32,000 bases of DNA from Candidatus Saccharimonadota bacterium (lineage in GTDB: Bacteria; Patescibacteriota; Saccharimonadia; Saccharimonadales; UBA4665): assembly GCA_963718045.1 (NCBI GenBank), contig OY970350.1, positions 660,001-692,000 of the forward strand. The letters run 5' to 3'. Shown one piece after another: positions 1,385 through 32,000 of the stretch (position 1 is its first letter; the number at the start of each line of letters is the position of its first letter). The notes beneath the pieces were generated by a model. That model was not told the DNA's origin. It ran no database searches and saw only the letters and a program-made list of their open reading frames with translations. The translations under genes were made by a program, and so were the position numbers.

Positions 1385-2695
1385 ATGAAAATTGCTATTT
1401 TAGGTTATGGCAGCCAAGGTCAATCTGTCTATGAGTACTATAAAAATACAGATAACACTTTAACTGTTTGCGATAAAGACACAGCTACTGACCTGCCTGA
1501 AGGCGTTGACAGCCAGATCGGTGAAGCATACTTAGATGGACTGGATAAGTTTGATCTTATCTTCAGGGGTCCTGGTGTTCATCCGACTGAAATTGTAAAA
1601 GCCAATGGCAAGGCAATACTAGGTAAAGTAACCTCTAACACCAACGAGTTTTTAAGGCTCTGCCCTACAAAGAATGTTGTTGGCGTAACTGGCACAAAAG
1701 GAAAGGGAACTACTTCAACCTTAATCGCTAAAATGCTTGAAGAAAGCGGACTTAGAGTTCATCTTGGCGGCAATATTGGTACACCACCTCTCGATTTACT
1801 GGCTGAAGATATTAAAGAAGAGGACTGGGTAGTTCTAGAACTCGCTAATTACCAGTTAATTGATCTTAAATATTCAATCCATATTGCTGTTTGTTTAATG
1901 GTCGAGCCGGAACACTTAGATTGGCATGCTGATGAAAATGAATACTATGAGGCTAAGGCTAAGTTATTTGAATGTCAGACTAAGGATGATCTGGCCACAT
2001 ATTATGGCCTTAACGCTAACTCTAAAAGGATTGCTTCTGCCTCGCCTGGTAAATTAATACCATACTTTGAGTCACCAGGAGCTTTAGTTGACGGTCCAAA
2101 TATTGTTGTTGACGGCACGCCGGTTATTAGGACTTCCGAGATAAAACTAATTGGCAAGCATAATCTGCAAAATGTCTGTGCCGCTGTTACAGCTGTCTGG
2201 CAAATAAATCAGGATACTGAGCCAATAGCTGACGTTTTAAGAGAATTCAGCGGACTGCCTTTTAGGCTGGAAATTATTAGGGAAGTTAAGGGTGTTAAAT
2301 ATGTAGATGATTCATTTGCTTCAGCGCCACCAGCCTCTGTTGCTGCGATTGAAGCCATTAAAGGACCGAAGATTTTAATATTAGGCGGTAAGGATAGGGG
2401 CCTTGATCTTAAAGATTTAGTGAAGGCAATATCTGGTAATGCTAAAGACATTAAAAAGATATTAATTATTGGTAATTCAAGCGAAAGACTGGCTAAGGCA
2501 TTATCTGGGGTTAACTTTACTAACTATGAAGTGCTTGGTTCGTCTAAATCAATGAAAGAGATAGTCGATATGGCAAGCAAAACAGCCAGCGCTTCGGACA
2601 GCGTTATTCTCTCCCCTGGTTTCCCCAGTTTCGATATGTTTAAGAACTTTGAAGACCGGGGACTTAAGTTTAATGATGCGGTAGATAATCTATGA
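1385..2695 (+). CDS. murD: UDP-N-acetylmuramoyl-L-alanine--glutamate ligase (MurD family)
   Basis: 436 aa. It has an N-terminal Rossmann-like KIAILGYGSQG, a Mur-ligase P-loop GVTGTKGKGTTS, HNLQNVCAAV, PFRLE...GVKYVDDS and ILILGGKDRGLD, in the order and length typical of MurD. The DDSFASAPPAS segment diverges from the usual NDSKATN. Confidence 0.8.
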   Translation: MKIAILGYGSQGQSVYEYYKNTDNTLTVCDKDTATDLPEGVDSQIGEAYLDGLDKFDLIFRGPGVHPTEIVKANGKAILGKVTSNTNEFLRLCPTKNVVGVTGTKGKGTTSTLIAKMLEESGLRVHLGGNIGTPPLDLLAEDIKEEDWVVLELANYQLIDLKYSIHIAVCLMVEPEHLDWHADENEYYEAKAKLFECQTKDDLATYYGLNANSKRIASASPGKLIPYFESPGALVDGPNIVVDGTPVIRTSEIKLIGKHNLQNVCAAVTAVWQINQDTEPIADVLREFSGLPFRLEIIREVKGVKYVDDSFASAPPASVAAIEAIKGPKILILGGKDRGLDLKDLVKAISGNAKDIKKILIIGNSSERLAKALSGVNFTNYEVLGSSKSMKEIVDMASKTASASDSVILSPGFPSFDMFKNFEDRGLKFNDAVDNL

Positions 2696-3993
2696 ACACC
2701 AATAAGACGTTTATTTTTAAGTATTACATCTTTGATGAAACGTTAAAGACACTCGAACTTAGGTATGGCTATCCTGACGGCCAGGAATTCAGCGAAAACT
2801 ACTACTTTGATTTTACATTCGCCGACTATGACAATGAGCAGCTAAACAGGGCTTTTGAAAACCTGCTGATACTCGCCGGTGTTTCATATTTTAAAGCTTA
2901 TGCCCCTAAGAACATCGAGCTGTCACTGGGCAATCTAACGGAAGATGAAGCAGCTTTTTATAGCCAAACGTATGAAAAAGGTTTGGGTGAGTTTTGGTAT
3001 GTTAACGGGCTTGATCCAAAGAGTAAAGTTAACTTCCCTATCAGTTCTAAGCATAAGGATGTGCTTGCTGGTGGTAAACATGAGGGCATGGTAGTCGGCA
3101 TTGGCGGCGGTAAGGATTCATTAGTGACGGTTGAAGCTCTCAAAAAAACAAATGTAGATTTTATGACCTGGAGTTTAAGCCATCGCCAGCAGTTAGAACC
3201 ATTGGTTAAAAAAATGGGCACTAAACACGCCTTTGTAGAAAGGATTATTGACCCTAAGTTACTCGAGCTTAATTCAATGGGAGCCTTAAACGGGCATGTG
3301 CCTATTTCAGCTATCATATCTTCAGTTGGTGTAATTGTTGCCATCTTAACAGGCAGACGTGACGTAGTTGTCAGCAACGAACAAACGGCTAACGAACCGA
3401 CTTTAGAATATAGGGGAGTTAGTATTAACCACCAGTATTCTAAGAGCCAGCAGTTTGAAAGGGATTATCAAAGATTCTTAAGAAATAGTTATGGTGAGTC
3501 TATCAGGTACTACTCGTTCTTAAGACCAATGAGCGAGCTTTATGTTGCCGAAGTATTTGCCTTAATTGGTTTCAGTAAATATAAGGGTGTGTTTAGTTCA
3601 TGCAACCGAGCCTATACTCTTCATTCAGACCATATGTTTTGGTGCGGTGAATGTCCTAAATGTGCTTTTGTCTTTATGATTTTAACGCCATTTATTGAAA
3701 GATCGGCTCTCGAGAGTTTGTGGCACGGTCAGAATCTTTTACTAGAGCCGAGTTTAGAGGAAACATATAGGCAGCTTCTTGGAATCAGTGGTAATAAGCC
3801 GCTTGATTGTGTCGGTGAAATTAAAGAAGCCAGAGCGGCCATGAAGCTCTGTTTTAAGAAGTATCCAGGTCTTAGTAAGAAATATACCTTTGACCTTCCG
3901 GCTAGCTATGACTACCGAACACTTAATACAAGTGAAATGCCGAAAGATATTAAACCGATCTTTGATAACTTTATTAAAACCTGGCAAAAATAA
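2692..3993 (+). CDS. PP-loop (adenine-nucleotide alpha-hydrolase-like) ATPase with a Cys cluster; candidate MurL-like epimerase partner of MurD
   Basis: 433 aa. The start overlaps the murD stop (ATGA at 2692-2695). It carries a PP-loop-like motif VVGIGGGKDSLVT (consensus SGGxDS) and a Cys cluster SSCN...WCGECPKC. The functional call is inference. Confidence 0.45.
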   Translation: MNTNKTFIFKYYIFDETLKTLELRYGYPDGQEFSENYYFDFTFADYDNEQLNRAFENLLILAGVSYFKAYAPKNIELSLGNLTEDEAAFYSQTYEKGLGEFWYVNGLDPKSKVNFPISSKHKDVLAGGKHEGMVVGIGGGKDSLVTVEALKKTNVDFMTWSLSHRQQLEPLVKKMGTKHAFVERIIDPKLLELNSMGALNGHVPISAIISSVGVIVAILTGRRDVVVSNEQTANEPTLEYRGVSINHQYSKSQQFERDYQRFLRNSYGESIRYYSFLRPMSELYVAEVFALIGFSKYKGVFSSCNRAYTLHSDHMFWCGECPKCAFVFMILTPFIERSALESLWHGQNLLLEPSLEETYRQLLGISGNKPLDCVGEIKEARAAMKLCFKKYPGLSKKYTFDLPASYDYRTLNTSEMPKDIKPIFDNFIKTWQK

Positions 3994-5779: not shown

Positions 5780-6529
5780 ATGAATGAGAGGACACCTAAA
5801 GAGTTAAAATCCGAGATTGTTCCTGCCCATGAAATTAATCTAGCCCGCCTCAGTAGTGAAGAGGCTCTACGAGCTTATCTACAAGAACAAACCCATTTAT
5901 TTAGATCTAAAGTTCTAGATAAATTAGCTAAGCATGGTGTCACAGAAGGTGCAGGTTGGGCTATCTTTACCCTTACAAGTCAAGAAGAAGACGTTCTAGG
6001 AAATAGTGTTATGACATTAATGCCGGATAAAGAAGTTCTCGTGTTATACTTGCCTCATCGTAACTCAAGAACAATGGATGGTCATCCAATACCTAACATA
6101 AGGATCATTACAAACGAGCCTTACTGTTCATGTGATAGAGCAACTCAGTATCTTAGTAGAGATTTTACGCTAGATCATGAAGACGACGTTCAGTATTTTG
6201 TCGACGCACAAGATATGTATGATTTTACTGACGAGTCCAAGAAAAAACCTCTTAGTGAAGAAAATCCACCAGGAAGGAATGAAACATTAACGCCACTTTT
6301 CTGGGCTAATGAGGATGGCAACCTGTGCATTTCGAGACCGATAAGCTACTTCACTGAAGCAACGGGTATTCATCTGACAAATCCGGATGATGGCACACCG
6401 ATAGAGAGCTACCCTTTTGGCTTGTACACCTCTCCTTTTGATGTACTCTATGCTCTAGAACAAGGAGAAGAACTGTTTGCTATGATAGAACGTTTAGATC
6501 CGGTACTTATTTCATCGGATGCTCTTTGA
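5780..6529 (+). CDS. hypothetical acidic protein (no recognisable domain)
   Basis: 249-aa ORF with no competing frame. TGaTAGTAT (5765-5773) lies 6 nt upstream of the ATG. Confidence 0.55.
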   Translation: MNERTPKELKSEIVPAHEINLARLSSEEALRAYLQEQTHLFRSKVLDKLAKHGVTEGAGWAIFTLTSQEEDVLGNSVMTLMPDKEVLVLYLPHRNSRTMDGHPIPNIRIITNEPYCSCDRATQYLSRDFTLDHEDDVQYFVDAQDMYDFTDESKKKPLSEENPPGRNETLTPLFWANEDGNLCISRPISYFTEATGIHLTNPDDGTPIESYPFGLYTSPFDVLYALEQGEELFAMIERLDPVLISSDAL

Positions 6530-6591: not shown

Positions 6592-7059
6592 ATGGTTAAC
6601 CTTAAGCTTAGATTGAAAACCAAAGAGTGGCTTAGAAGATATATACCAGCCGAAATACTTGGCACAGTTTTTGCCTTAATTGCCGCCTCTTTAGTTTTTA
6701 GCCATAATCATTCATATGTCCTGGCTGCTGGAGCCGGTTGGCTTGGTGAAGGCATTGGTTTTTACGGCTATTTTATATCGACTGAACTGTTCCTTAATAA
6801 CCAAAAGTACAGGAGCTATTCTTTCTTTAAACGGATAGCTACGGTTGTTGGTGTAGCCAGCACAAATTTATTTGTTGAATTTGCACCGGCTGAAGTCTTA
6901 GACAACTTCTTGATACGTCCATTTGCCATGTATCTAGTGCCTCAATATATCCATCCCTACCCGATTGGCTTTCTGGTTGGTAAGTTTGGTGCTGATTTAA
7001 TTTTCTACATGCTGGCTGTAGTCGGCTATGAAACAAGAAAAAGATGGCTTAAGAGATAG
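6592..7059 (+). CDS. hypothetical integral membrane protein (about 4 TM)
   Basis: 155 aa with hydrophobic segments (ILGTVFALIAASLVF, VLAAGAGWLGEGIGFYGYFI, etc.). TGaTATACT (6577-6585) lies 6 nt upstream of the ATG. Confidence 0.55.
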   Translation: MVNLKLRLKTKEWLRRYIPAEILGTVFALIAASLVFSHNHSYVLAAGAGWLGEGIGFYGYFISTELFLNNQKYRSYSFFKRIATVVGVASTNLFVEFAPAEVLDNFLIRPFAMYLVPQYIHPYPIGFLVGKFGADLIFYMLAVVGYETRKRWLKR

Positions 7060-8257
7060 CCGTTCGGCGACTGCCTACCGCTGAACCAGATACTTTGTAC
7101 CATCTAGGTAAGACATAGGCGGCAAGGGCAGTAGTTAGGGGGACTGCCAGAAGCAGGCTAATACTAGGTACAACTGTTCTTACTACCGCTTCAATAATAG
7201 TTTCATCGTTCAGGGTAACGGCTAGTGGCTGGCCGGTTGTATATAGAACTGTTGCTACAACTGTTGGCAGAGCCGTACCGGCATACAAAATAAAAAGAGT
7301 GTTGATTAGGGCGGCTATATGTTCGCGGCCGACTGACATGCCTTGACGGTAGATTTTAAGCGAACTAAGTTTTGGGTTAGCTTTATGGATTTCATCAACG
7401 GCAGCAGCCTGGCCTGTCGTAATATCTTCCAGTATTCCGAGTGAGGCAATGACCACGCCGCCCAGGAAAAGTCCGGTTATATTAATGTAGTGAGGCGCAT
7501 ATTGAAGTAGTGTCACAGATTGTTCTGAGTTTACTGTTTCAGTTGGATTGCCAGTTACGCCAGTCAGATAAACAGTTAAAGCGGCTAGGCCGATAACAAT
7601 ACATAAACTTAAAACTGTGCTTATATATGCTAGAGTTGTTCTTCGCCTAAAACCATGGGCAATAAATATGGTAAAGGTGGCAATCATAAATGCTCCTTCT
7701 ATGCAGGTAGCAAAAGCAGCATCACCGTGGACAATTCTCGGCAGAACAAAGATTGTTAAGATACCGATGGTGAATACTAAGCCGGCGGCAGCAGTGACTC
7801 CCCGCCAGCGGCCAATTAGAATTACTAAAGCAGCTAAGATAGCTAGGATTGTTAACGCACCTGTAATCCTATATCTATCTAAAAATGAGTATTGATCACC
7901 GTTATTTGGCTGAACGTCCAGTAAAACTGTGCTGCCGATAGGCAGTCGCTTGGAGTTTGGATCCGACGGAAAATAGCTCCGGGTGGTAGTCTCAATCTTA
8001 TTTTTGTCAAGACCTTCGAGAATTCTGACTTTAACTTGCTGGCTACCCGGTGAGTTATTAACTTCATAGACGCTAAGTACTTGGGCTTTAACAAATTGCT
8101 CCTGGGCTCCTTTTTTATAAGGGCTTAGGTTAACTAAGAAAACAGCACTGGACAATAAAATTAGACTAAGCAAGATTATGTAGACAAGCTTTTGCCACCT
8201 GTATTTACCAAGGGTTAAAAAGAGCGAATTAGGCACAAGGCCGGTCTTTATAGTCAC
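7049..8257 (-). CDS. polytopic membrane protein, YibE/F-like
   Basis: 402 aa with a GTG start. It has an N-terminal TM, a soluble approximately 90-aa segment, then about 7 TM. The motif LGILEDITTGQAAAVDEI resembles the conserved YibE/F loop. The family assignment is from memory only. Confidence 0.4.
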   Translation of the reverse strand: MTIKTGLVPNSLFLTLGKYRWQKLVYIILLSLILLSSAVFLVNLSPYKKGAQEQFVKAQVLSVYEVNNSPGSQQVKVRILEGLDKNKIETTTRSYFPSDPNSKRLPIGSTVLLDVQPNNGDQYSFLDRYRITGALTILAILAALVILIGRWRGVTAAAGLVFTIGILTIFVLPRIVHGDAAFATCIEGAFMIATFTIFIAHGFRRRTTLAYISTVLSLCIVIGLAALTVYLTGVTGNPTETVNSEQSVTLLQYAPHYINITGLFLGGVVIASLGILEDITTGQAAAVDEIHKANPKLSSLKIYRQGMSVGREHIAALINTLFILYAGTALPTVVATVLYTTGQPLAVTLNDETIIEAVVRTVVPSISLLLAVPLTTALAAYVLPRWYKVSGSAVGSRRTAIS

Positions 8258-8285: not shown

Positions 8286-10946
8286 TTAATAAGGGCTCGG
8301 GTATTCGCGTGTTAAGTAGGCATTGTAAGAGGGATTCTGCATACATGCCTCAATTGTTTGGCAGACATAGCCGTCATACTTAGCATAGGTCATGAATATT
8401 GCCTGCTTTCCTTTAACTTCAGCAGCGGTTAGGTTTGCAGTCATCTCGTGAATCGGATAACCAATATAGTACTTGATCGGTATTGATACCTGGTTGTCAT
8501 ACTTCTCGGTTTCAAACTGTTTGTATGCCTGATTGGTAAACCAGTTAACACTTAGGTGGTCGCTGTGATCAGGATAGGTTGTACCGACAACGCCGGATTG
8601 GGTGTTTATTAAGCTTGGCTGGTAAATACTGACAAGGGTAGCTAGGGCACTTATGAGCTGGCTTGAAGTGTAGTACGACTGTCCGTCTACAGAGTTAATA
8701 ACTTTGATAGCACCGCTCTCAAGTTTTGCCAAGCTCTCATAGTCAGACGTACTAAAGCCCTGCCCTTTTAGGTTACCATCAGGCAGATGCATGAATATTA
8801 GAGATACTTTGCCGTCAGACTTAGGGTTCGCTATGGTGACATATTCATTTGGTGCTAGCTCAACAATTCTTTGGACCCAAACATCGTTATTGCCGGTCAT
8901 GTATGAATAAGCAGCTTCTGCTCCTTCTTCCCTGCTTAGCCAATAAAAGTCACTGATTATACCGGCATTACCGGCTGTAACATATATTGTTCTGACGCAG
9001 TCACCGGCCTCAATCTCGTTATATAGGTCAGGGTTCATAAACAGTGTGTCGTCATCTTCATGAGCAACAACAGTAACCACAGTCGGGTTAAGGCATGACG
9101 TGTTGGGCAATTCGTTTAGAGATATTGGCAGAACAGTTGATGGACCGTTAGACGGTTCAGGTGTAGCTGGTGCGCTATTATATTTACCTTTGTCATAGTA
9201 CAGCAAAAGCTCTGTTGGATGACTGAACGTGCCGGCTATTAAAGTTGATGAGTTAGGTCTGCCGTAAGCTTGAACTATTTGATTTAATGTGCAGTTTGGA
9301 TAGTTAGTCAGACTGCCTGAAATAGTCAGTAAATAAGCAAATTTAACTCTGTTTAGATTTGGCTGCCAAGAACTGCTGCTGAGAGTCTGCAGAGGTGTAA
9401 GACAGTTAGCAAGCGGTTCTATATTAAGAGACTTATTAGCCAGTACATTTTGGCTCAACTTTATGCCTGAGCTAGAGTTTCTAATCCCGACTTTCAGGTT
9501 GCCGGCAACTTGCTTTATTGGTACGACCCGCCAGTAATCACCAATTAGTACGGTGGTGTGATGCTGGGCTAGTGCTTCAGCCACTTGGGTATTATGATTG
9601 TTGGTTACGGCTAGGGCATTCTTATCCTGGTTATAGTTATTCATAGCACCAAACAGACCAAAAACTATGCCAATACAAATAACCGCCCCGCCTATTACGT
9701 ACCGCTCTGGCGGCCATTTCTTGGCTCTTGAGTAAGACGCAAAGGCAATAAAGACGGCAAATAAAACAATTGTTAAATAGCGGGCATCGACTAGATAGTA
9801 GTGATTGGTAATAACATAGCTAATAAATGCTATGGCTGAAGCCCAGATAAGAATTATAGCCAGCTTATAGCTTTGGCTAAAATGAAGTTTTGAAGCATGT
9901 TTGCCTAAAGTAGATCTAATTAACTTATATGCTATAAATAGACCGGCTAATAGAATTAGAAGATTGACTATATAAGCCGGACCAGACAGAGTCGATAGAT
10001 TACTAAACAACTGGTGTGGAATGGTTCTTAGTGTAGGAGCTTTATATGCTGGATTAGCACCAAAGTTCGTAAATATTCCCATAACACCGTAGATAACACC
10101 AAGAGCAAAATTCTTGGCGCTATCAGTTAAGTTATATGGGCTGCTTGAGCCGACTGAGGTTAAATGAACTAAGCCGCTATGGCTGATAATGATTAGAATT
10201 AAGTAAGCCCCGACTGCTGAAATAACTCCGACTACTAACCAGTCTATGGATAAGTTAACTAACGACCATTGTCTTTGGTGGGCATAAATAATTAAAGCTA
10301 GCAGGCCTGAGCCTATAGCTAAAACCAGAAACAGCTTATCTGATGCAAACAGCAGACTTAAGACTAAAGCTGAAAGCCAAAAACCTAAACTTTTGATATG
10401 CGGTTTACGAATTAGTAGGGCAAGGCCGGCAATTAAGAATATATATTCGATATTTCGGGTGTTCATCATGGCCATATTAACCGGCAGGATTGCTCCCGGA
10501 TAAGGATTTGCTGGTACTAAAAGAAGCACTGAAGCTAGAGCCAGACAAATGGTGCCAAAGACTATAGGCCGTTTATCAATCTTGTATAGCAAAGCGGTTA
10601 GCAGGCCGACTGTGACTAAAACTAATAAGACGGTAAAGATATTAATGACTGCATTTGATCCGCCAAATAAGTTAATTAGATAGAACAGGGGCCATTTAAT
10701 TAAGAAACTGTGTGTCCCAGGCAGCGTTGCATTATTTAAAGTCTTTAAATTCTTAAATAAGAAAGAATAAACTAGCTGATCAGAATTAGACAGCTGGATT
10801 TTAGCACTTAGTAAAGACCAGTAAATGGTAGTTAGGGTCAGGACTAATAGTGAGAAAAAAAGATACGTTCTGTTAAAAAGGGTTGTGTTCGCCAGTTTTC
10901 TTAATCTAAGTAGGTATGGGTTAGTGGTCTTTCTCTTGGTTTTCAT
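8286..10946 (-). CDS. 886-aa fusion: N-terminal polytopic membrane domain (GT-C-like, putative) + C-terminal PIG-L/LmbE-family deacetylase domain
   Basis: About 13 hydrophobic helices in aa 25-470. The C-terminal approximately 260 aa (nt about 8286-9080) carry VVAHEDDDTLFMNPD (the AHPDDE motif of PIG-L/LmbE) and YPDHSDHLSV (HxDH motif). The start overlaps the GtrA stop (ATGA). Confidence 0.6.
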   Translation of the reverse strand: MKTKRKTTNPYLLRLRKLANTTLFNRTYLFFSLLVLTLTTIYWSLLSAKIQLSNSDQLVYSFLFKNLKTLNNATLPGTHSFLIKWPLFYLINLFGGSNAVINIFTVLLVLVTVGLLTALLYKIDKRPIVFGTICLALASVLLLVPANPYPGAILPVNMAMMNTRNIEYIFLIAGLALLIRKPHIKSLGFWLSALVLSLLFASDKLFLVLAIGSGLLALIIYAHQRQWSLVNLSIDWLVVGVISAVGAYLILIIISHSGLVHLTSVGSSSPYNLTDSAKNFALGVIYGVMGIFTNFGANPAYKAPTLRTIPHQLFSNLSTLSGPAYIVNLLILLAGLFIAYKLIRSTLGKHASKLHFSQSYKLAIILIWASAIAFISYVITNHYYLVDARYLTIVLFAVFIAFASYSRAKKWPPERYVIGGAVICIGIVFGLFGAMNNYNQDKNALAVTNNHNTQVAEALAQHHTTVLIGDYWRVVPIKQVAGNLKVGIRNSSSGIKLSQNVLANKSLNIEPLANCLTPLQTLSSSSWQPNLNRVKFAYLLTISGSLTNYPNCTLNQIVQAYGRPNSSTLIAGTFSHPTELLLYYDKGKYNSAPATPEPSNGPSTVLPISLNELPNTSCLNPTVVTVVAHEDDDTLFMNPDLYNEIEAGDCVRTIYVTAGNAGIISDFYWLSREEGAEAAYSYMTGNNDVWVQRIVELAPNEYVTIANPKSDGKVSLIFMHLPDGNLKGQGFSTSDYESLAKLESGAIKVINSVDGQSYYTSSQLISALATLVSIYQPSLINTQSGVVGTTYPDHSDHLSVNWFTNQAYKQFETEKYDNQVSIPIKYYIGYPIHEMTANLTAAEVKGKQAIFMTYAKYDGYVCQTIEACMQNPSYNAYLTREYPSPY

Positions 10947-11368
10947 AAGTTTTTATTGTTTTTGACATCACTATGATTACGGAAAATATGCTTATTGTAA
11001 AGATAGTAGTTCCAAACCGTCGATATTGCTAGAGCTATGGTTCTGGTTAAGACAGCCGGCAGCGGCGGAGACAGTAGTTTAGTAACTACCAGGGAGAAGA
11101 TAAAGTTAATAAGAACTAATAATGAAAAGGCTAGTATTTGAGGTATTAATACTTTATGGTGCATCCTTTTATCTTTAAAACCAATTAGCTTTTGTAAAAT
11201 AAAGGCTACTACTAAGCCAACCCAGTAGCTTATGCCAACAGCCATAACACCGCTCGCACCAAGCGACTGGGCAACAATAATAATTAGAAGTTCGAGGATA
11301 TAAACAGATATGCCAATTGTTAGGTAGCGTTTATTTAACCTTTTAATCAGGTTTTTAAGTTTAGTCAT
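10943..11368 (-). CDS. GtrA-family small membrane protein (putative lipid-linked sugar translocase)
   Basis: 141 aa, 4 TM, with the size, topology and basic N-terminus typical of GtrA. It overlaps both neighbours. Confidence 0.6.
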   Translation of the reverse strand: MTKLKNLIKRLNKRYLTIGISVYILELLIIIVAQSLGASGVMAVGISYWVGLVVAFILQKLIGFKDKRMHHKVLIPQILAFSLLVLINFIFSLVVTKLLSPPLPAVLTRTIALAISTVWNYYLYNKHIFRNHSDVKNNKNL

Positions 11369-12323
11369 CTAGGCCGACAGACTTTGATTTATCTACTATG
11401 TAAAGCGGTCTTTGTTTGGCCAGACTATGGATATGGGAAACATACATAGACAAAATGCCCTGGGAAATTAGAACTATACCGACCAGGAATAAGATTAGAA
11501 TGCCAAGTTCAGCTGTACCGGTAAATTTCCAGTGTAGAGGATCATTAAGTATTACCTGTTCAATAAGTACTGCTAGGCCTGTTAGAAATGACAAAACTGT
11601 AATGACAACTCCGAGGCAGCCAAATATATATAAAGGCTTTGGCGAGAGTGAAGTAAAAACGTTAGAAGCAAGACCAATTAATTTAGTTACGCTATAGCTG
11701 GGATTACCGCTAACACGTTCTTTTGCACTAAAAGTAATGTACTCCCGCTTAAATCCAAGCCAGTCTATTAATCCTCTGGTTAGACGGTCTGATTCTTTAA
11801 GTTCAAGGAATGCTTTTTGCACATCTCTATCTATTAAACGAAAGTCCGTGCTGTTACGATTAAGTTTCTGGTCAGTTAGAAGGTTGAATGAGAAATGAAA
11901 AAACTTTGATGATAATGATCTAAACCAGTTATACCCTTTATATGAGCTAAGGCCAATAACTACTTTGCTGCCAGAACGCCAAGCCTTAACAAAGTCTGGA
12001 ATTAGTTTAACCGGATGTTGACCGTCACCATCAATTGTTAATATAGCTCTGCCTTTAGCACTAGCTATACCGGCCGAAAGAGCACTTTCTTTACCGAAGT
12101 TCCTGGAAAAGGCTATTAGTTTAGTGTTTGCTGAACTGCCTTTTAGTTTTTTAAATACTTCTAGGGTATTGTCGGTACTGCCGTCATCGACATAGATTAT
12201 TTCATAACTTATAACGTCAGACTTTTTAAGAACTGTGGTTAATGAGGCATGGAAATTTGTTAGACCAACAGCTTCATTGTATATAGGTATAACTATAGAC
12301 AGCTCGACTTGATTGTTAGGCAT
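11361..12323 (-). CDS. family-2 glycosyltransferase, polyprenyl-phosphate sugar synthase type (GtrB/ArnC/CsbB-like)
   Basis: 320 aa. Motifs: LSIVIPIYNE, YEIIYVDDGSTDNT, ILTIDGDGQHP, plus two C-terminal TM helices, as in the DPM1/GtrB class. Confidence 0.8.
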   Translation of the reverse strand: MPNNQVELSIVIPIYNEAVGLTNFHASLTTVLKKSDVISYEIIYVDDGSTDNTLEVFKKLKGSSANTKLIAFSRNFGKESALSAGIASAKGRAILTIDGDGQHPVKLIPDFVKAWRSGSKVVIGLSSYKGYNWFRSLSSKFFHFSFNLLTDQKLNRNSTDFRLIDRDVQKAFLELKESDRLTRGLIDWLGFKREYITFSAKERVSGNPSYSVTKLIGLASNVFTSLSPKPLYIFGCLGVVITVLSFLTGLAVLIEQVILNDPLHWKFTGTAELGILILFLVGIVLISQGILSMYVSHIHSLAKQRPLYIVDKSKSVGLDD

Positions 12324-17035: not shown

Positions 17036-17839
17036 CTAGGCTATGCGGCGATGAAGATCATGCACTTTTGGATGTCTACCTCTGACATATTTATCAATTG
17101 CCTCTGCAATAGCGGTTTTAACTGCATCACGGCGATCATAGTCGGTAGGTAATTCTGCTACTTCAAGAGCAGGATTAATTAACTCATCACCCAGGTAACC
17201 AAGTCTATATCTAATCGACCTGTCAGCCAGAAGGCCGCGGCGTAGGACTGATATTCCAAACCTTGCAAGGTCTCGATCACCCTTTTTAGCTAACTCATTG
17301 CCTCTTAACTTTATCTGTCCATTTTCCATATCCGCTAAGACTGGCGTGCCACTAGTGCTTAGCATAATGTTCTTTGCCTGCATATCACCATGGGTTATGC
17401 CCCTAACCTGTAAGCTTCCGGCTAGATTTGCAGCAAAATTTACCGCTGGAGTAATCTCTCTATGCAGACGTCTTGAAGCAACATTTTCATTCCAGCTTAA
17501 TTGACCGAGGTGTCTTAGGTCTGGGCGATACTTAGATATAAGATAGGCATACAATCCTTCTGATGCAACCTCAAGAGGCTCAATAGTATCGAACCCCTCA
17601 CCCCGTGCATATTCCAGTACTTCTTTCTCATGCAGTGCTCTTACGGTTAGTGTAAATGGCTTAATTGCTACATCGCCGTAAGGTGATAAAGTGCCAAATA
17701 ATACACCGTGTCCAGAGTCCGAATCACCAAGATGTCTATAAGGATGTTCAGCAAAATAGCCAACGTTTCTATATATATCAGCTATTAATGTTTCGTGTGT
17801 CGGCAGGGGGGTAGGATTTTCTATTGCTAAGTTTTTCAT
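17036..17839 (-). CDS. protein-kinase-like (PKL) fold kinase, small atypical type
   Basis: 267 aa. Motifs: LSPYGDVAIKPF (VAIK beta3 Lys), HEKEVLEYAR (alphaC Glu candidates), ITHGDMQAKNIML (HxDxxxxN catalytic loop), VLADMENG (DFG equivalent). Confidence 0.65.
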   Translation of the reverse strand: MKNLAIENPTPLPTHETLIADIYRNVGYFAEHPYRHLGDSDSGHGVLFGTLSPYGDVAIKPFTLTVRALHEKEVLEYARGEGFDTIEPLEVASEGLYAYLISKYRPDLRHLGQLSWNENVASRRLHREITPAVNFAANLAGSLQVRGITHGDMQAKNIMLSTSGTPVLADMENGQIKLRGNELAKKGDRDLARFGISVLRRGLLADRSIRYRLGYLGDELINPALEVAELPTDYDRRDAVKTAIAEAIDKYVRGRHPKVHDLHRRIA

Positions 17840-18459
17840 AAATCACCGTCTTCTAGTCCTTTAATGGCTAGCCGGGTTAATTCTCTTATTCTAACATCTG
17901 ACAATACTGGTTGCAGGTTTTTTTCAATAGATGAAGCTAGATTATGTCTTATTCGGCCTGAACGAGGCTGGCCGTATCTAAAATGATAAGGAGGGATGAA
18001 AACTACTTGGCCGCTTTCTCTAAGTAACGCCAGGCTCTTTATACCAAGATCCTGCATGGAAAACTTTCGGGCATCAAGCGCTACTTGTCTTCCGACATGT
18101 AAGTACAAATTATCTATTGCTCTATCACCTCTCGGGTGGGAACCCAAAGTTATAGCTACAATTGGTAGTAAATCTACGGGCTTTCTAAAAACAGTATAGT
18201 CATCACCGACATGATTAATGGGTAGTAAATCTGAATATGGTAGAACATCAGTAGAAAATAAAGCTTCTTGCGTACGATCACCGTAAGGTGATAAATCCTT
18301 CATAGCTATAAATTCTTGTCCGAAGTTATCGAAAAACTGAAGCGGCCTAATTGATGAATGACCCCTTGATACCTCTAGAGAAGGAGGGGACAATTTGATT
18401 TCTGAAGATGCTAACTCGGCGTAGCTAGATGGGTATTGCACTTTTATATAATAACACAA
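17836..18459 (-). CDS. degenerate paralogue of the downstream kinase (putative pseudokinase)
   Basis: Its stop overlaps the kinase start (ATGA at 17836-17839). It shares LSPYGD with the kinase, but the VAIK Lys and HGD..N are replaced (DRTQEALF; MQDLGIKSLALL). The track start is TTG at 18459. A more likely start is GTG at 18441, 6 nt downstream of TGtTATTAT. Confidence 0.5.
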   Translation of the reverse strand: MCYYIKVQYPSSYAELASSEIKLSPPSLEVSRGHSSIRPLQFFDNFGQEFIAMKDLSPYGDRTQEALFSTDVLPYSDLLPINHVGDDYTVFRKPVDLLPIVAITLGSHPRGDRAIDNLYLHVGRQVALDARKFSMQDLGIKSLALLRESGQVVFIPPYHFRYGQPRSGRIRHNLASSIEKNLQPVLSDVRIRELTRLAIKGLEDGDL

Positions 18460-18476
18460 AACTATTTAACTTACAA
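18448..18476 (-). promoter_or_regulatory. promoter TTGTAA-17-(TGt)TATTAT, 6 nt upstream of GTG 18441 (leaderless-type)
   Basis: Read on the minus strand: -35 is the reverse complement of 18471-18476, and -10 is the reverse complement of 18448-18453. Confidence 0.4.
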
Positions 18477-18518
18477 GACCTGTTAGCGTGGTATTAACTT
18501 ACGGGTTATTATTAATTA

Positions 18519-18755
18519 ATGAATAAGTCTTTTCAGGTATATGTGGGCGTAATGCTAATGATTATAGTTCTCTTAATGGCTGCACTGGTTGGTGGCCTAA
18601 TTTATGCTGTTAGAGATGTTAAAACTCAGGCTAATAATGTTAACTTAAAGGTAAATAATTTTAACCACAACTTAAATCAGCTAAATGGTGATCTAAATAA
18701 TATAGACAACCAGCTAAAGATAGATAATTCAGATACTACTTCACTTAAACCATAA
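18519..18755 (+). CDS. small membrane-anchored Asn-rich coiled-coil-like protein
   Basis: 78 aa. N-terminal TM VYVGVMLMIIVLLMAALVGGLIYAV, followed by N-rich heptad-like repeats. TATTAT lies 6 nt upstream of the ATG. Confidence 0.45.
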   Translation: MNKSFQVYVGVMLMIIVLLMAALVGGLIYAVRDVKTQANNVNLKVNNFNHNLNQLNGDLNNIDNQLKIDNSDTTSLKP

Positions 18756-18821
18756 CTCTTGGAAGTGCTGTTTGGTTTTACTTGGTAACAATTTGCTTAA
18801 AAATTAGCACCCATAAAAACT

Positions 18822-19535
18822 TTGATGGTATACTTGCAATTAATGACAGATTCTAATGCAAACAAAGATGGAATTGATGTACCAAAACCTGGTAATTGGC
18901 CAGGCGCTTTTGAGTCTTATAAGCTAGTAAAACCACATATTAAACCTCAAATCTGGAACTTTGTTTCAGTGATTGGTTTATCTATAGCAGTTCTTTTACT
19001 CTTAGACATAGTTTTTAGCATTGTTTTTAAGCACACTTTTATGAATACCACGCTTAATGACCTAGCCAGCTTATTAATCAGCTCTTTTATGGAGGCTGTC
19101 ATTATAACTATGTTCTTCGCCTCTTTGAGGGGTGATGAATTTACACTCCAAACAGCTATAAATTACGGCCTCCAAAGGCTTCTAAAAATGATCGGTCTTA
19201 TTTTTATTATGTACGTTATTATGCTGGTAAGTTTTATCCTGCTAGTCATACCCTTCTTCTTTGTTGCGCCAAGAGTCCTGCTGGCACCGTATTACCTAAT
19301 ACTTAATGACTGTACTGTTAGTGAAGCACTGGCTGCCAGCTGGCACTCAACAAAAGGTCAATATAAGAATGTTTACGGCATAATTGGTATCCAGGTATTA
19401 GTTGCCTTAGCCTTTATTACAATTATTGGCATACCATTCGCTATTTACTGGGGCATTATTAACTCTGGTTCTTTTGCTTTGCTAACTCTTTATTTGTCGC
19501 AGTCAAAAGATAAGACTGACTTAAAAAAAGCTTAA
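18822..19535 (+). CDS. hypothetical polytopic membrane protein
   Basis: 237-aa ORF from a TTG start. A more likely start is ATG 18843 (MTDSNANK), 8 nt downstream of TGgTATACT (18826-18834). About 5 TM. Confidence 0.5.
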   Translation: MMVYLQLMTDSNANKDGIDVPKPGNWPGAFESYKLVKPHIKPQIWNFVSVIGLSIAVLLLLDIVFSIVFKHTFMNTTLNDLASLLISSFMEAVIITMFFASLRGDEFTLQTAINYGLQRLLKMIGLIFIMYVIMLVSFILLVIPFFFVAPRVLLAPYYLILNDCTVSEALAASWHSTKGQYKNVYGIIGIQVLVALAFITIIGIPFAIYWGIINSGSFALLTLYLSQSKDKTDLKKA

Positions 19536-23505: not shown

Positions 23506-25029
23506 ATGCCATCATCAACTGAGAAAATTGGTAGCCTCATTGCTCAAATACGACAAGAACGAGGCTTATCACAGGCAGAATTCGCCAGACGGCTCGGCAC
23601 CAGCCAATCGGCTGTAAACCGTATGGAACGGGGTAACCAGAACCTGAGTATTGAAACTTTAGGCCGTATTAGTGATGTCTTAAACAAACAGCTTATTAGT
23701 TTGAGCGGCGAAGCTGTTAACCTTAGAATTGAAGGCGGCCACAAGCTAAAGGGCGAGATAACCTTAAAGACCTCCAAGAATGCAGCCGTTGGACTGCTGT
23801 GTGCCAGTTTACTTAACGAAGGCGTAACAAAGTTTAAGGCTTTCCCCCGAATTGAAGAAGTCTATCGGATGATTGAAGTGCTGGAAAGTATCGGTGTAAC
23901 AGTTAGATGGTTTGAAGGCAATGATATTGAAATTAGACGGCCTAAGAAATTAAATCTGGAAAATATTGATATTAATGCCGCTACGCAAACGAGAAGTGTG
24001 CTTATGTTCATTGGCCCGCTAATACATGAGTTTACTAAATTTAAGATTCCTTATGCCGGTGGCTGTAAGCTTGGTACTAGAACCATTCAGCCCCATCTAT
24101 TTGCTATGGAGGAATTCGGCGTAAGTATTGTAGCCAGCAACAGTAACTACCACATTGACGTAAAGAAAAAACCAATCGATAGAATAACTCTTTATGAACA
24201 AAGCGATACTGTTGCGGAGAATATTGTAATGGCCGCCTCTAAATTTAGTACCGAAACAGTTATTGAATTTGCCAGTGCTAATTATGCTGTCCAGGAAGTC
24301 TGTTTATTCTTAAGAAAATTAGGTGTCAGCGTAAACGGTATTGGTACAACCACTTTAAGGGTAAAAGGTATGACTTCTATTAAAAAGAACATTGTCTATG
24401 CTCCTAGTGAGGATCCAATTGAGGCAATGTTCTTTACAGCAGCTGCCGTTACAACGAATTCCAAGATTACCATTAAAAGGGTGCCGATTGAGTTTATGTC
24501 AGTTGAGCTACTTAAGCTTGAAAAGATGGGGCTTAAAGTAACCAGAAGTGACAGATATAAGGCAAACAATGGTTACACTGATTTAGTTGATCTGACTATA
24601 TTCCCTCATGACGGTGAACTTAAGGCTTTATCGGATAAAATCCATTCACTGCCCTACCCGGGACTTAATGCCGATAACCTGCCCTACTTTGTGCCTATTG
24701 CCGCCTGTGCTAAGGGAAGAACCTTAATTCATGACTGGATGTATGATAATCGGGCTTTATATTACACTGAACTTACTAAGATTGGCGCTCAGATAGAACT
24801 AGCTGATCCTCATAGACTTTATGTAATTGGCCCAACTAAGTTTAGACCGGCTGATGTTGTCTGTCCGCCTGCCTTAAGGCCAGCCTCACTGCTGCTTATT
24901 GGCATGTTAGCAGCCGACGGCATTAGCATGCTTAGAAATGTCTATACCATAAACCGTGGTTATGAGGATCTGGCTGCCAGATTGAATGTTTTAGGCGCTA
25001 AGGTAACTGTCGTTCACGATATCAGTTAG
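23506..25029 (+). CDS. murA: fusion protein: N-terminal XRE-type HTH + UDP-N-acetylglucosamine 1-carboxyvinyltransferase
   Basis: 507 aa. Aa 1-65 form the HTH: IRQERGLSQAEFARRLGTSQSAVNRMERGNQNLSIETL. The remainder aligns by eye with MurA: LRIEGGHKLKGEITLKTSKNAA, AGGCKLGTRTIQPH (active-site Cys retained), INRGYEDLAARLNVLGAKV. Confidence 0.8.
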   Translation: MPSSTEKIGSLIAQIRQERGLSQAEFARRLGTSQSAVNRMERGNQNLSIETLGRISDVLNKQLISLSGEAVNLRIEGGHKLKGEITLKTSKNAAVGLLCASLLNEGVTKFKAFPRIEEVYRMIEVLESIGVTVRWFEGNDIEIRRPKKLNLENIDINAATQTRSVLMFIGPLIHEFTKFKIPYAGGCKLGTRTIQPHLFAMEEFGVSIVASNSNYHIDVKKKPIDRITLYEQSDTVAENIVMAASKFSTETVIEFASANYAVQEVCLFLRKLGVSVNGIGTTTLRVKGMTSIKKNIVYAPSEDPIEAMFFTAAAVTTNSKITIKRVPIEFMSVELLKLEKMGLKVTRSDRYKANNGYTDLVDLTIFPHDGELKALSDKIHSLPYPGLNADNLPYFVPIAACAKGRTLIHDWMYDNRALYYTELTKIGAQIELADPHRLYVIGPTKFRPADVVCPPALRPASLLLIGMLAADGISMLRNVYTINRGYEDLAARLNVLGAKVTVVHDIS

Positions 25030-29540: not shown

Positions 29541-30905
29541 CTAGTTAGGCGACATATATCCTATTATAGTATCTTGGCTGTTACCCCAGTAACCGTTGAA
29601 TGTCTGGATTGAAACAATTGATTCACTTGGTGGACTGCCCGGCGTGGATTGTGGAGAACTAGGAGGAAAGTTGTCCGCACCACCTTCTTGATCTCCACCG
29701 ATATAGGTGCTGACTCCCCCCGACGAAGATATAAACATATTAACATGAGCATGGGGTTGACCAGGAAATGAGTGGGCAGCTAAATCTCCGGGTTGAGGAA
29801 TATAACCACTTCCGGCAGGATGCCAGCTAAATGCCCCACCCTGTTGAGCAATCGCCATGATGACATCTACTCCTGTAACTTGCCAATTAGGATCGGGCTG
29901 CAGCGGGTAATTAGCTTGGTTATATATCCAGCTAACAAAATCGGCACACCACTCCTCATATACTCCCCCTGAATAATCTAGATAACCTGCGTTGGCGTAA
30001 GGGAAATTAGCGGTATCATAACCCAGCTGAGATTGCCAAAGTTGCAATTGAGCCTCGGCTATGCACACTAGTTCTTGCCTAAGGCTGGCATTGGGAACCG
30101 TGCTATCCGTTAGGTCGCCTGATGATGCGGAAGAGCTACAATTGGCAAGGCTAACACTGCCGCAATCATTGTCAGTACCGCTACCACTTGTAGTGCCACT
30201 GTTATTAGATGACCCGCCATATAACGTTAAAGCCTTATTAGCGTAATTGAGTCTTGTGGAATAGTCAGTGTTAGTTTCGTAATACTGCAGGGTTGCACCT
30301 GGCCATACAGGACCTTCCTCGAAATCCTCTAGAACTACTAATACTCCTGCTGCTGTGGTGTTCGTTTGTTTAAGAGCTTGAATAGTAGGAGGAGAATTCG
30401 GTTGAAGGTTAATACTATTTAACTCATCCCAGACTATAGTTAATTGGGTTGCCAGCTCATATATTGGAGTTGTAACTCCATACTGTTGAGCTTCTTCTAA
30501 CACTTTATCCCCGGGAGTCCATTGGGCAATACCCCAACCTTGAGTATCTAAAGTTAAGGAGGACGGGTCATTGGTATTGCCACCGCTCTGAATTATTGTC
30601 GGATCCATGGTAGATTCGGTCATTAGGTTGCCGACGACCGATGCAGCCTGAGTATCGCTTAGCCCTTTGGATACAAAAAAATTAAAAGCCTCTTGTTCAT
30701 TGTCAGTGCCACTTAGAGTGACTACACTGCCTGTGCCTTGGGAACTGCATTCATCATTAGTGTTGAAATATAGTGCCCCTTCACTGAGCGCTTGTATCTG
30801 GGCTGGACTAAGTTGAGCGTAGGCAACGCCGCCAAATAGCTGGGTTAATAGCACTACAAGTGAGAATAGACATGCAGTTAAATTTAGTTTCTTAGTTATT
30901 TTCAT
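29541..30905 (-). CDS. secreted two-domain cell-wall hydrolase: N-terminal phage-tail-lysozyme-like muramidase + C-terminal CHAP domain (CwlT-like)
   Basis: 454 aa from ATG 30905 (signal peptide MKITKKLNLTACLFSLVVLLTQLFGGVAYA). N-terminal domain: VVGNLMTESTMDP...GWGIAQWT. A Gly/Ser linker follows. CHAP-like domain: EEWCADFVSWIY ... PHAHVNMF. The track start 30947 is rejected because it overlaps the upstream gene. Confidence 0.6.
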   Translation of the reverse strand: MKITKKLNLTACLFSLVVLLTQLFGGVAYAQLSPAQIQALSEGALYFNTNDECSSQGTGSVVTLSGTDNEQEAFNFFVSKGLSDTQAASVVGNLMTESTMDPTIIQSGGNTNDPSSLTLDTQGWGIAQWTPGDKVLEEAQQYGVTTPIYELATQLTIVWDELNSINLQPNSPPTIQALKQTNTTAAGVLVVLEDFEEGPVWPGATLQYYETNTDYSTRLNYANKALTLYGGSSNNSGTTSGSGTDNDCGSVSLANCSSSASSGDLTDSTVPNASLRQELVCIAEAQLQLWQSQLGYDTANFPYANAGYLDYSGGVYEEWCADFVSWIYNQANYPLQPDPNWQVTGVDVIMAIAQQGGAFSWHPAGSGYIPQPGDLAAHSFPGQPHAHVNMFISSSGGVSTYIGGDQEGGADNFPPSSPQSTPGSPPSESIVSIQTFNGYWGNSQDTIIGYMSPN

Positions 30906-30906
30906 T

Positions 30907-32000
30907 TTAAAAGCCCATATCGGTACAAGCCTGATCATCACCCGCATAACAACCCATGCTACTCATGGTTTCCGTGTCTAAAATGAAAAAGCGCATTCTG
31001 AGCCAATTACAAGCATCACTTGTATTATCTGTGCAGTCGGCTGGGGCTGGTTCGTTACAGTTTAAGCCACTGTAGGTAGTGCTATAAGGATTTAATGTCT
31101 GAGCCTGAGGGTCGGCCTCGACATCCCACAATCCATTAACTTGAACTATATCAACCCCAAAACAACTGGTAGCTCTGGAGATGTACGGACTATCTGGGTA
31201 GAGTATATTGTTCTGGGGATTAGAAACATATTCTGCATTCTCAAATGGGTTTTGTTCAATTGGGTTATCGAGGTCTTGGTCGTCAAAGCCATATGTGGGG
31301 AATGGATAGTTATATCCGGTGGTAGTTGCAGTCTGAGATTGAGCGCTGACCGATGAAAATAGGAGTTGAGGTATCTTGAAAATTGCTCCGATAATATCCG
31401 GAAAATGTCCTAACACTGCCTCAATATTGGCCGAGATTGTTGGTTTAGCCTGCCCTATGATATTAGATATTAAAGATTTAGGAGTATCTATTGAAAACAG
31501 TTTATACTCTAAGCTCTGTTTCTCAAATTCTTGATTAGCGGCTAAATTATTTTGGGTTTGAAGCTGACTAGACTGACCGGGGGTTAAGGCTGTCCCACCA
31601 GACACAACTGCTTGTTGGTTAGCAGCAAGGGCTGATCCAAAATCTATATCGTTACCAAAGTCGGCTCCGACTGCGGCAACATCAACCGCTTTTCCGGCTA
31701 ACCAATGAGCGGCTGTACCGGATATTTCATGGATAACAGTGGCGGTGGCTATACCTTTTACAAGAGTTTGGACTAATGCTCCTATGCCCGTCCAGTCAAC
31801 TGCAAAGCTAAGTACACCACCGATAATCTGACCTGCAGTGCTGCATACTGTGCCGATACCAGGAATATTATTCACAAATGAAAATGGTGAACCTTGATCT
31901 ATGCTTGTAAGTGTTGAATCAGGAGGTTCGCCTACATTCTTGTTGCCCATATTAGCTTGGATACTTTGACTATCAGACCAGTCTGTTAGTTGACCTTGCT
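30907..32000 (-). CDS. C-terminal part of a larger hypothetical membrane/surface protein (open to the window edge)
   Basis: The frame stays open upstream of the listed Met (31950) to nt 32000. It has Gly-rich hydrophobic segments (IGTVCSTAGQIIGGVLSFAVDWTGIGALV) and a Cys-rich C-terminus. Its stop is 1 nt from the hydrolase start. Confidence 0.5.
   Translation of the reverse strand, partial: QGQLTDWSDSQSIQANMGNKNVGEPPDSTLTSIDQGSPFSFVNNIPGIGTVCSTAGQIIGGVLSFAVDWTGIGALVQTLVKGIATATVIHEISGTAAHWLAGKAVDVAAVGADFGNDIDFGSALAANQQAVVSGGTALTPGQSSQLQTQNNLAANQEFEKQSLEYKLFSIDTPKSLISNIIGQAKPTISANIEAVLGHFPDIIGAIFKIPQLLFSSVSAQSQTATTTGYNYPFPTYGFDDQDLDNPIEQNPFENAEYVSNPQNNILYPDSPYISRATSCFGVDIVQVNGLWDVEADPQAQTLNPYSTTYSGLNCNEPAPADCTDNTSDACNWLRMRFFILDTETMSSMGCYAGDDQACTDMGF

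Follow-up and report, generated by a model that had tools for sequence, protein, structure and literature searches.

In a 32,000-nucleotide stretch of Candidatus Saccharimonadota bacterium DNA (GCA_963718045.1, OY970350.1 positions 660,001-692,000), hereafter the window, three overlapping minus-strand open reading frames (ORFs) were analyzed as a candidate system for placing an amino sugar on the cell envelope. The ORFs lie at 11361..12323 (320 amino acids, aa), 10943..11368 (141 aa) and 8286..10946 (886 aa), and the last of them joins a polytopic membrane domain to a PIG-L/LmbE-type deacetylase domain. The features are as follows (TM, transmembrane; AF2, the AlphaFold model).

11361..12323, minus strand: GT2 polyprenyl-phosphate glycosyltransferase of the GtrB/ArnC/PgfS type, 320 aa, with a GT-A domain and a C-terminal two-helix membrane hairpin (PF00535)
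10943..11368, minus strand: GtrA-family small membrane protein, 141 aa (PF04138), overlapping both neighbors, a proposed flippase or synthase helper
9552..10946, minus strand: membrane domain of the 886-aa protein, aa 1-465, with 11 TM helices, the N-terminus predicted inside, a GT-C(A)-like layout and invariant D56 (AF2 model)
9192..9551, minus strand: mid domain of alpha/beta type (about aa 466-585), predicted extracytoplasmic, in which C515 and C552 are invariant (secondary structure from the model)
8286..9101, minus strand: predicted extracytoplasmic PIG-L/LmbE (CE14-type) de-N-acetylase domain, about aa 616-886 plus the stop codon (PF02585)

The three genes are translationally coupled: the stop of the GT2 gene overlaps the start of the GtrA gene in ATGACTAA at 11361-11368, and GtrA in turn shares ATGA at 10943-10946, as its stop, with the 886-aa gene, as its start. 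An earlier note on this DNA had given the same ORFs and both overlaps (ATGACTAA and ATGA), which are exact as read in the sequence, and the motifs that it quoted, YVDDGSTD, IDGDGQHP, VVAHEDDDTLFMNPD and YPDHSDH, were all found in the translations. The hidden Markov model (HMM) scan that it proposed as a check matched the three products to PF00535 (4e-27), PF04138 (4e-13) and PF02585 (1.8e-10, aa 625-807), respectively. Promoter and terminator scans gave matches at chance level only and do not define the operon boundaries.

The product of the first gene, which the earlier note had called a polyprenyl-phosphate-type GT2 with two C-terminal TM helices, turned out to be an end-to-end homolog of GtrB and ArnC. 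The protein matched PF00535 over aa 9-168 (4.2e-27) and carries YVDDGS and DGDGQ motifs in its translation; aa 3-311 were collinear with Synechocystis GtrB (5EKP) at 1.6e-56 in a PDB sequence search, TM hairpin included, and aa 7-311 aligned with the ArnC structures 9HWJ, 9BHC and 8VXH at about 1e-30, again with the C-terminal membrane hairpin. Among full-length NCBIfam matches PgfS was the best (3e-64), and ArnC was matched at 2.6e-38. All of these scores lay under the NCBIfam equivalog cut-offs (PgfS 217 bits vs. 500, ArnC 132 vs. 529, PpgS 35 vs. 370), so that the enzyme class is secure and the sugar specificity is not assigned by them. A processive synthase of poly-N-acetylhexosamine working with a deacetylase, on the pattern of poly-N-acetylglucosamine, was considered and rejected, since the enzymes with which the GT2 is collinear, those of the GtrB/ArnC type, are non-processive. 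The second product, likewise named GtrA-type beforehand, belongs to that family (PF04138, 4.3e-13, 49.9 bits vs. a cut-off of 26.1, aa 14-129); as a flippase, GtrA has no more than a ‘proposed’ role, and this holds for the prototype as well (PMC11127046).

The third product, the 886-aa protein, has 11 TM helices plus juxtamembrane helices according to both hydropathy analysis and the AlphaFold model, and not the ‘about 13’ counted previously. The full-length AF2 model had a pLDDT of 88 and a pTM of 0.86. Across 44 family sequences, the density of lysine plus arginine was 0.26 per residue on the predicted cytoplasmic loops vs. 0.05 on the others, a bias that argues for an N-in, C-out orientation, in which the deacetylase domain is predicted to lie outside the membrane. 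Of the invariant membrane-domain residues checked, 20 of 22 were located on outward-facing loops or at helix ends; only R126 was placed on a cytoplasmic loop, with W43 and Y168 inside helices. The region that follows the membrane domain (about aa 466-585) had been taken for a soluble linker but is instead a folded alpha/beta domain in the model, with an invariant C515/C552 pair and a GDYWRV motif, and the external part as a whole contains six invariant cysteines (C515, C552, C618, C650, C862 and C868). The C-terminal domain matched PF02585 over aa 625-807 with 41.9 bits vs. a cut-off of 28.2 (1.8e-10), and the same model was matched above its gathering score in 44/44 family members. Foldseek against the PDB with the full-length model returned MshB, LnmX and BshB first, as matches to this domain (E 5e-5 to 4e-4, probability 1.00), with only 11-16% identity to the solved deacetylases, and phmmer with the PIG-L domain found no match to any PDB chain. 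The PF02585 and LmbE-fold matches bear out the earlier statement that the PIG-L/LmbE domain is clear, and the metal-binding His/Asp residues whose alignment it had singled out for checking are in place: A628-H629-E630-D631-D632 and H794-S795-D796-H797 are invariant in the 44 family members, and AH(E/Q)DDD and DHxDH are also invariant across nine members of the wider clade described below. In line with published MshB and BshB work, we take the AHxDD/HxDH residues to be metal ligands and general base.

A homolog search with the 886-aa protein returned at least 594 significant proteins. The best 120 of these were without exception full-length proteins of about 850-920 aa, with 46-62% identity; the named ones among them were labelled only ‘LmbE/PIG-L family deacetylase’ and came from Saccharimonadales or Patescibacteria, and two (P0117 and P0120) had an extra N-terminal GtrA domain. 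In a one-genome-per-species set (GTDB) there were 304 relatives, and the neighborhoods of the best 79 of these 304 loci were surveyed, 54 of which had enough flanking sequence to be informative. The full fusion was encoded in 61 of the best 79 loci, and all 61 were from Saccharibacteria, Patescibacteria or unclassified ‘bacterium’ metagenome assemblies. Judged by these searches, the fusion constitutes a large, widespread and unnamed family, nearly all of whose members appear to be Saccharibacterial. The claim that the architecture is not assignable to a described system stands in that no described system was found for it; the fusion itself is not rare. In the open-access literature we found no paper on this fusion or on the coupling of a GT-C protein to an LmbE enzyme outside the membrane, and a Saccharibacterial transposon-sequencing study does not mention the fusion.

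The survey showed GT2 and/or GtrA genes alongside the fusion, on the same strand, in 46 of the 54 informative species-level genomes (85%), one of these being counted as ‘elsewhere within 5 kb’. The collinear order GT2-GtrA-fusion was present at 27 of the 54 loci, a GT2 gene followed by a GtrA::fusion protein at four (L021, L036, L051 and L058), GT2-fusion at eight and GtrA-fusion at six; at one locus GT2/GtrA lay elsewhere within 5 kb, and at eight neither was found within that distance. The association of GT2, GtrA and fusion is far beyond chance and the three genes form a conserved module, as had been supposed when they were grouped as one system from the window alone. No other neighbor was consistently linked at the 54 loci. 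GT4 genes were present at 12 loci and Mur ligase/Ddl genes at six, and in about nine genomes (L014, L031, L032, L048 and some five others) the fusion gene adjoins origin-region housekeeping genes (dnaA, yidC, rnpA and jag/KhpB-like).

The two halves of the fusion also occur as separate proteins. An exhaustive profile search with the membrane domain (profile A2) against 1.84 billion representatives at E <= 0.001 returned only 300 proteins, among them members of about 535-575 aa that end after the mid domain, and on this evidence the membrane-domain family is a closed one of about 300 representatives. The short members retain the NADQLV, KWPLF, RNxEY, SDxLF, NFG and DARY motifs together with the mid-domain cysteines, the mid domain thus staying with the membrane domain in the split forms. 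At four Saccharimonadia loci (L065-L068) the membrane-plus-mid-domain protein directly adjoins a separate PIG-L gene of about 390 aa; the adjacency was seen with the A3 HMM in L065, L067 and L068, and GT2 and/or GtrA genes are adjacent in L066-L069. The L066 PIG-L protein has a single N-terminal TM anchor, and in L067 the membrane-protein and PIG-L genes are consecutive on one strand, so that the split falls at the fusion junction. The 569-aa membrane protein of L066, which went into building profile A3, is a tentative family member, its hhalign match to profile A1 being weak (E 0.0075, probability 5%). The fused-versus-split pattern indicates that the membrane and PIG-L modules are functionally linked, yet separable. 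The L066 cluster of split GT2, GtrA, PIG-L and membrane-protein genes is also adjoined by a gene at 7501-8226 (plus strand) for a second LmbE protein of cytoplasmic type (241 aa, no TM segment, AHADD/HPDH motifs).

As to the function of the membrane half, Foldseek with the full-length model matched three GT-C(A) enzymes in the PDB, each with probability 0.99: STT3A (8b6l_I, E 0.02, 576 aligned columns, TMq 0.25 on the 886-aa query), PglB (3rce_A, E 0.034, 528 aligned columns, TMq 0.27) and AftA (8if8_B, E 0.05, 464 aligned columns, TMq 0.28). Transporter matches interspersed in the same list had probabilities of at most 0.18 and a TMq of about 0.08. If rescaled to the 465-residue domain, the TM-score to the GT-C enzymes would be about 0.45-0.5, an estimate and not a computed value. 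The GT-C(A) fold is defined by a TM1-7 core in which two juxtamembrane (JM) helices separate TM1 from TM2, the first of them (JM1) bearing an essential Asp at its tip. AftB, with 11 TMs in all, has another two juxtamembrane helices after TM7 and before TM8, and its C-terminal domain caps the bundle on the periplasmic side (PMC12041299). In the model of the window protein the helices are TM1 22-51, JM1 55-63, JM2 82-93, TM2 98-123, TM3 127-142, TM4 165-180, TM5 187-202, TM6 205-223 and TM7 227-256, and the overall order is TM1, two juxtamembrane helices, TM2-7, two more extracytoplasmic helices, TM8-11 and a C-terminal external domain. The GT-C(A) N-terminal module is thus present, and the AftB-type layout is followed helix for helix in a comparison limited to secondary-structure layouts. 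D56, which is invariant in 44/44 members, stands at the start of the helix 55-63 (JM1) on the outer face and may have the catalytic role. In our view the membrane domain acts in the manner of a GT-C(A) enzyme and probably has that fold, as the member of a sequence family that is new. In a separate search of BFVD the top match of the membrane domain was V5UQY6 of Oenococcus phage phiS13, an uncharacterised 445-aa polytopic protein (probability 1.00, TMt 0.44), whose entry has no annotation and which may be a phage-borne Gtr-type surface-glycan transferase.

We consider it fairly probable that the locus encodes a Gtr-like three-component system for extracytoplasmic glycosylation, the terminal component of which carries its own outward-facing de-N-acetylase. 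By homology, the GT2 would move a sugar from a nucleotide sugar onto polyprenyl phosphate at the cytoplasmic face; this sugar would be an N-acetylhexosamine (HexNAc), a choice made only because a deacetylase is present. GtrA, going by its family, would either help the lipid-linked sugar across the membrane to the outside or stimulate the synthase. The 11-TM GT-C(A)-like domain would then transfer the lipid-linked sugar to an envelope acceptor, as suggested by fold, layout and gene linkage, with a putative active site formed by the outward-facing D56/Q57, H79, K84, R164/N165/E167, D203, N294/N298 and H382/D387/R389; that its donor is a polyprenyl-phosphate-linked sugar is suggested by the linkage to GT2/GtrA only. 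The zinc-type PIG-L domain, whose motifs are present and which is predicted to sit outside above the transferase, would strip the N-acetyl group from either the flipped lipid-linked donor or the newly attached residue, and the outcome would be a free-amine, cationic hexosamine (HexN) on the cell surface, an end product that we infer from the steps before it.

Several results weigh against this reading. At the sequence level nothing ties the membrane domain to a GT-C family, and its exhaustive profile search stays in the closed family of about 300 representatives. GT-C Pfam families were matched by 0/44 family members and 0/18 split-family members, and Pfam plus NCBIfam scans of the 886-aa protein and of these 44 and 18 sequences found no family at all for aa 1-600. 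Profile searches of the PDB with the membrane-domain family returned nothing, as phmmer/profile searches of PDB sequences with the whole protein, A1, A3 or the PIG-L domain alone returned nothing meaningful, and hhalign against an E. coli-type ArnT profile gave a probability of 0.1%, with both profiles shallow because the ArnT hits were 76-100% identical. The Foldseek matches to GT-C enzymes are themselves weak (E 0.02-0.05, TMq 0.25-0.28 on the 886-aa query, root-mean-square deviation 8-15 Å), and they were gone when a domain-only AF2 model (aa 1-465, built from 11 sequences) was searched, leaving transporter noise at a TM-score of about 0.13. That model reached a pLDDT of only 70 and had disordered loops, so its fold search is uninformative rather than refuting. 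At the level of the neighborhood, eight of the 54 informative loci have no GT2 or GtrA gene within 5 kb, and no epimerase or acceptor-synthesis gene was consistently linked at the surveyed loci, so that the neighborhood points to neither a sugar nor an acceptor. The suggestion in the earlier note that the N-terminal half is transferase-like is upheld in part, by the full-length fold matches, the GT-C(A) layout and the invariant JM1-tip Asp, and not by GT-C Pfam, PDB-sequence or ArnT-profile matches or by the domain-only model.

As a first alternative, the membrane domain would be an anchor, scaffold or lipid-binding platform for an outward deacetylase that edits flipped polyprenyl-phosphate-HexNAc or a glycolipid, with transfer carried out by an unlinked enzyme or with the deacetylated lipid as the end product. 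We regard this as unlikely. Sequence dissimilarity to every GT-C family, the noise in the domain-only fold search and the persistence of the PIG-L gene beside GT2/GtrA even in split loci are all consistent with it; however, one helix suffices as an anchor, as the split-form PIG-L proteins illustrate, and 11 TMs with some 20 invariant polar residues on the outer face would not be needed. Furthermore, the layout and the JM1-tip Asp fit GT-C(A), Foldseek gave a probability of 0.99 for three GT-C enzymes, and the membrane protein is kept beside PIG-L in the split loci.

The wider relatives of the PIG-L domain speak for its outside location in the main reading and also bear on a second alternative, which concerns the deacetylase. 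The nearest relatives outside Saccharibacteria are 35-42% identical and share the AH(E/Q)DDD and DHxDH motifs, and most of these proteins have the same cysteines as well. They include a clade from Actinomycetota, Patescibacteria and Proteobacteria whose members are apparently secreted (L070, L071, L074-L076 and L078), such as an 841-aa Amnibacterium protein with a signal-peptide-like N-terminus (L070, 4752-7277), and are fused to glycan-binding DUF7402/F5_F8_type_C, PKD, PA14 or GLEYA modules. Given the signal-peptide-like N-terminus, the shared motifs and the fused modules, the PIG-L domain looks like a member of an extracytoplasmic clade of the LmbE fold made up of apparently uncharacterised CE14-type deacetylases. 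The characterised LmbE enzymes MshB and BshB are soluble and cytoplasmic. As to whether deacetylation comes after or before transfer in the main reading, the glycan-binding partners favor a polymer as substrate, whereas the linkage of PIG-L to GT2/GtrA that persists in split loci favors a lipid intermediate. In the second alternative the domain would be a general de-N-acetylase of N-acetylglucosamine in envelope polysaccharide or peptidoglycan, like PgdA or PgaB, independent of the GT2/GtrA product and tethered for localization only. Polymeric substrates are implied by the F5/8 type C, PKD and PA14 modules of the clade, Mur ligase and Ddl genes are found close to the fusion at some loci, and the window is rich in mur genes; yet the linkage of the fusion to GT2/GtrA is kept in 85% of informative genomes, PIG-L-only proteins still adjoin GT2/GtrA, and peptidoglycan-gene neighbors occur in only about six loci, and we give this explanation no more credence than the scaffold. 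That the PIG-L-like domain has some other hydrolytic or hydratase activity here, or only binds sugar, is very improbable: the LmbE fold does house non-deacetylases such as the GalB hydratase (5cgz, among the Foldseek matches), and the low identity to solved deacetylases and the lack of phmmer matches to PDB chains would fit, but the canonical AH-x-DD and H-x-DH motifs are invariant in the 44 family and nine clade members and PF02585 is above its gathering score in all 44.

All three alternatives are less well supported than the Gtr-like system with its own outward-facing de-N-acetylase. A bolder version of that system, which we put forward tentatively and hold to be possible but not probable, is that the membrane domain founds a new GT-C family and that the LmbE domain fused to it would be the first CE14 enzyme to edit a lipid-linked donor outside the membrane, converting polyprenyl-phosphate-HexNAc to polyprenyl-phosphate-HexN after flipping and just before transfer. 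This is the step that still lacks its enzyme in the galactosamine pathway of mycobacteria and corynebacteria discussed below. A cationic amino-sugar coat would then be a lineage-wide Saccharibacterial trait, relevant to epibiotic life on Actinobacteria.

The window as a whole has a GC content of about 40% and is ordinary chromosome with many mur genes, folate genes and msrA. A YibE/F-family membrane protein gene (7049-8257, minus strand) starts 28 nucleotides past the stop of the 886-aa gene, and YibE/F is likewise downstream of the fusion on an independent assembly (L081). We rejected it as a fourth component since it was not beside the fusion in any of the 79 related genome loci, and the gene probably lies outside the system. 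Other products of the window include a 507-aa protein (23506-25029, plus strand) in which HTH_3 (aa 12-63) is fused to a MurA/EPSP-synthase-fold domain (aa 76-490), an unusual regulator::cell-wall-enzyme architecture, and a 468-aa protein (29541-30947, minus strand) with a Phage_lysozyme2 domain (PF18013), whose neighbor, a 347-aa ORF at 30907-31950, had no Pfam match. ORFs of 155-433 aa at 5780-6529, 6592-7059 and 2692-3993 (all plus strand) and at 17036-19535 had no Pfam/NCBIfam match; among them, a 155-aa hydrophobic protein is convergent with the YibE/F gene.

Saccharibacteria are ultrasmall epibionts on Actinobacteria, and their surface chemistry is almost unknown. The module, conserved across hundreds of Saccharibacterial species and predicted to furnish the surface with a free-amine sugar, represents a concrete envelope trait with possible effects on charge, on attachment to the host, on phage receptors and on how well the cell withstands lysozyme or cationic peptides. 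If the proposed function is true, it adds a membrane glycosyltransferase family missed by current Pfam and CAZy-style sequence models and moves the LmbE/CE14 deacetylase fold outside the cell, with the secreted actinobacterial relatives pointing to a wider extracellular de-N-acetylase clade.

Among known systems, Gtr O-antigen glucosylation (GtrB, GtrA and a serotype-specific GT-C Gtr*) has the same logic and gene order as the window operon, with a GT2 polyprenyl-phosphate-sugar synthase, a GtrA protein and a polytopic membrane transferase that acts outside the membrane (PMC11127046). The Gram-positive equivalents CsbB/GtcA/YfhO follow the same three-component logic. In contrast, the terminal component in the window matches none of the Gtr*, YfhO or PMT_2 families and bears an extra extracytoplasmic PIG-L deacetylase, so that its sugar is probably a HexNAc rather than the glucose of Gtr. 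The Arn pathway (ArnC, ArnD, ArnE/F and ArnT), which puts 4-amino-4-deoxy-L-arabinose on lipid A, is like the window in combining a GT2 (ArnC, about 1e-30), a deacylase and a GT-C: ArnC makes an N-acylated lipid-linked amino sugar, the deacylase frees the amine and the envelope receives the now cationic sugar from ArnT, a GT-C enzyme. The Arn deformylase, ArnD, stands alone as a protein, comes from outside the LmbE family and does its work ahead of flipping, whereas the window deacylase is LmbE-type, fused and predicted to be outside; moreover, GtrA takes the place of ArnE/F as the proposed flippase, and ArnT has no profile similarity to the window membrane domain. The window domain shares the fold (Foldseek E 5e-5 to 4e-4) and the AHxDD/HxDH motifs of the CE14 enzymes MshB, BshB and diacetylchitobiose deacetylase, but differs from these soluble, cytoplasmic enzymes in its predicted extracytoplasmic location, its conserved cysteine pairs, its 11-16% identity and its placement in a clade of otherwise secreted, multi-domain glycan-binding proteins. 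In the Pgf system of Streptococcus mutans (PgfS, PgfE and PgfM1/PgfM2), PgfS and the GT-C PgfM1 put N-acetylgalactosamine (GalNAc) on extracytoplasmic Ser/Thr-rich protein regions (10.1101/2024.05.05.592596). PgfS is the best NCBIfam match of the window GT2 (3e-64), at 217 bits vs. an equivalog cut-off of 500; the window has no linked epimerase, and Pgf has no deacetylase, its sugar staying N-acetylated.

The closest functional analog, by pathway logic, is the galactosamine (GalN) decoration of mycobacterial and corynebacterial arabinogalactan (PpgS, Rv3632 and Rv3779), in which a GT2 makes polyprenyl-phosphate-GalNAc, a GtrA-like helper takes part, transfer by a GT-C follows outside the membrane and the residue ends up as de-N-acetylated GalN, the deacetylation being placed after flipping and the deacetylase ‘as yet unidentified’ (PMC9671496). 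The window GT2 matches the PpgS model weakly (35 bits), and the likeness to Rv3779 is one of pathway logic. Unlike that route, the window has a candidate deacetylase physically fused to the transferase-like domain, and this deacetylase-transferase fusion offers a model for the enzymatically unassigned step of the arabinogalactan GalN pathway, deacetylation of flipped polyprenyl-phosphate-GalNAc (PMC9671496). The logic of the window system is the known three-component one, and its new parts are the membrane-enzyme family and the outward-facing deacetylase clade.

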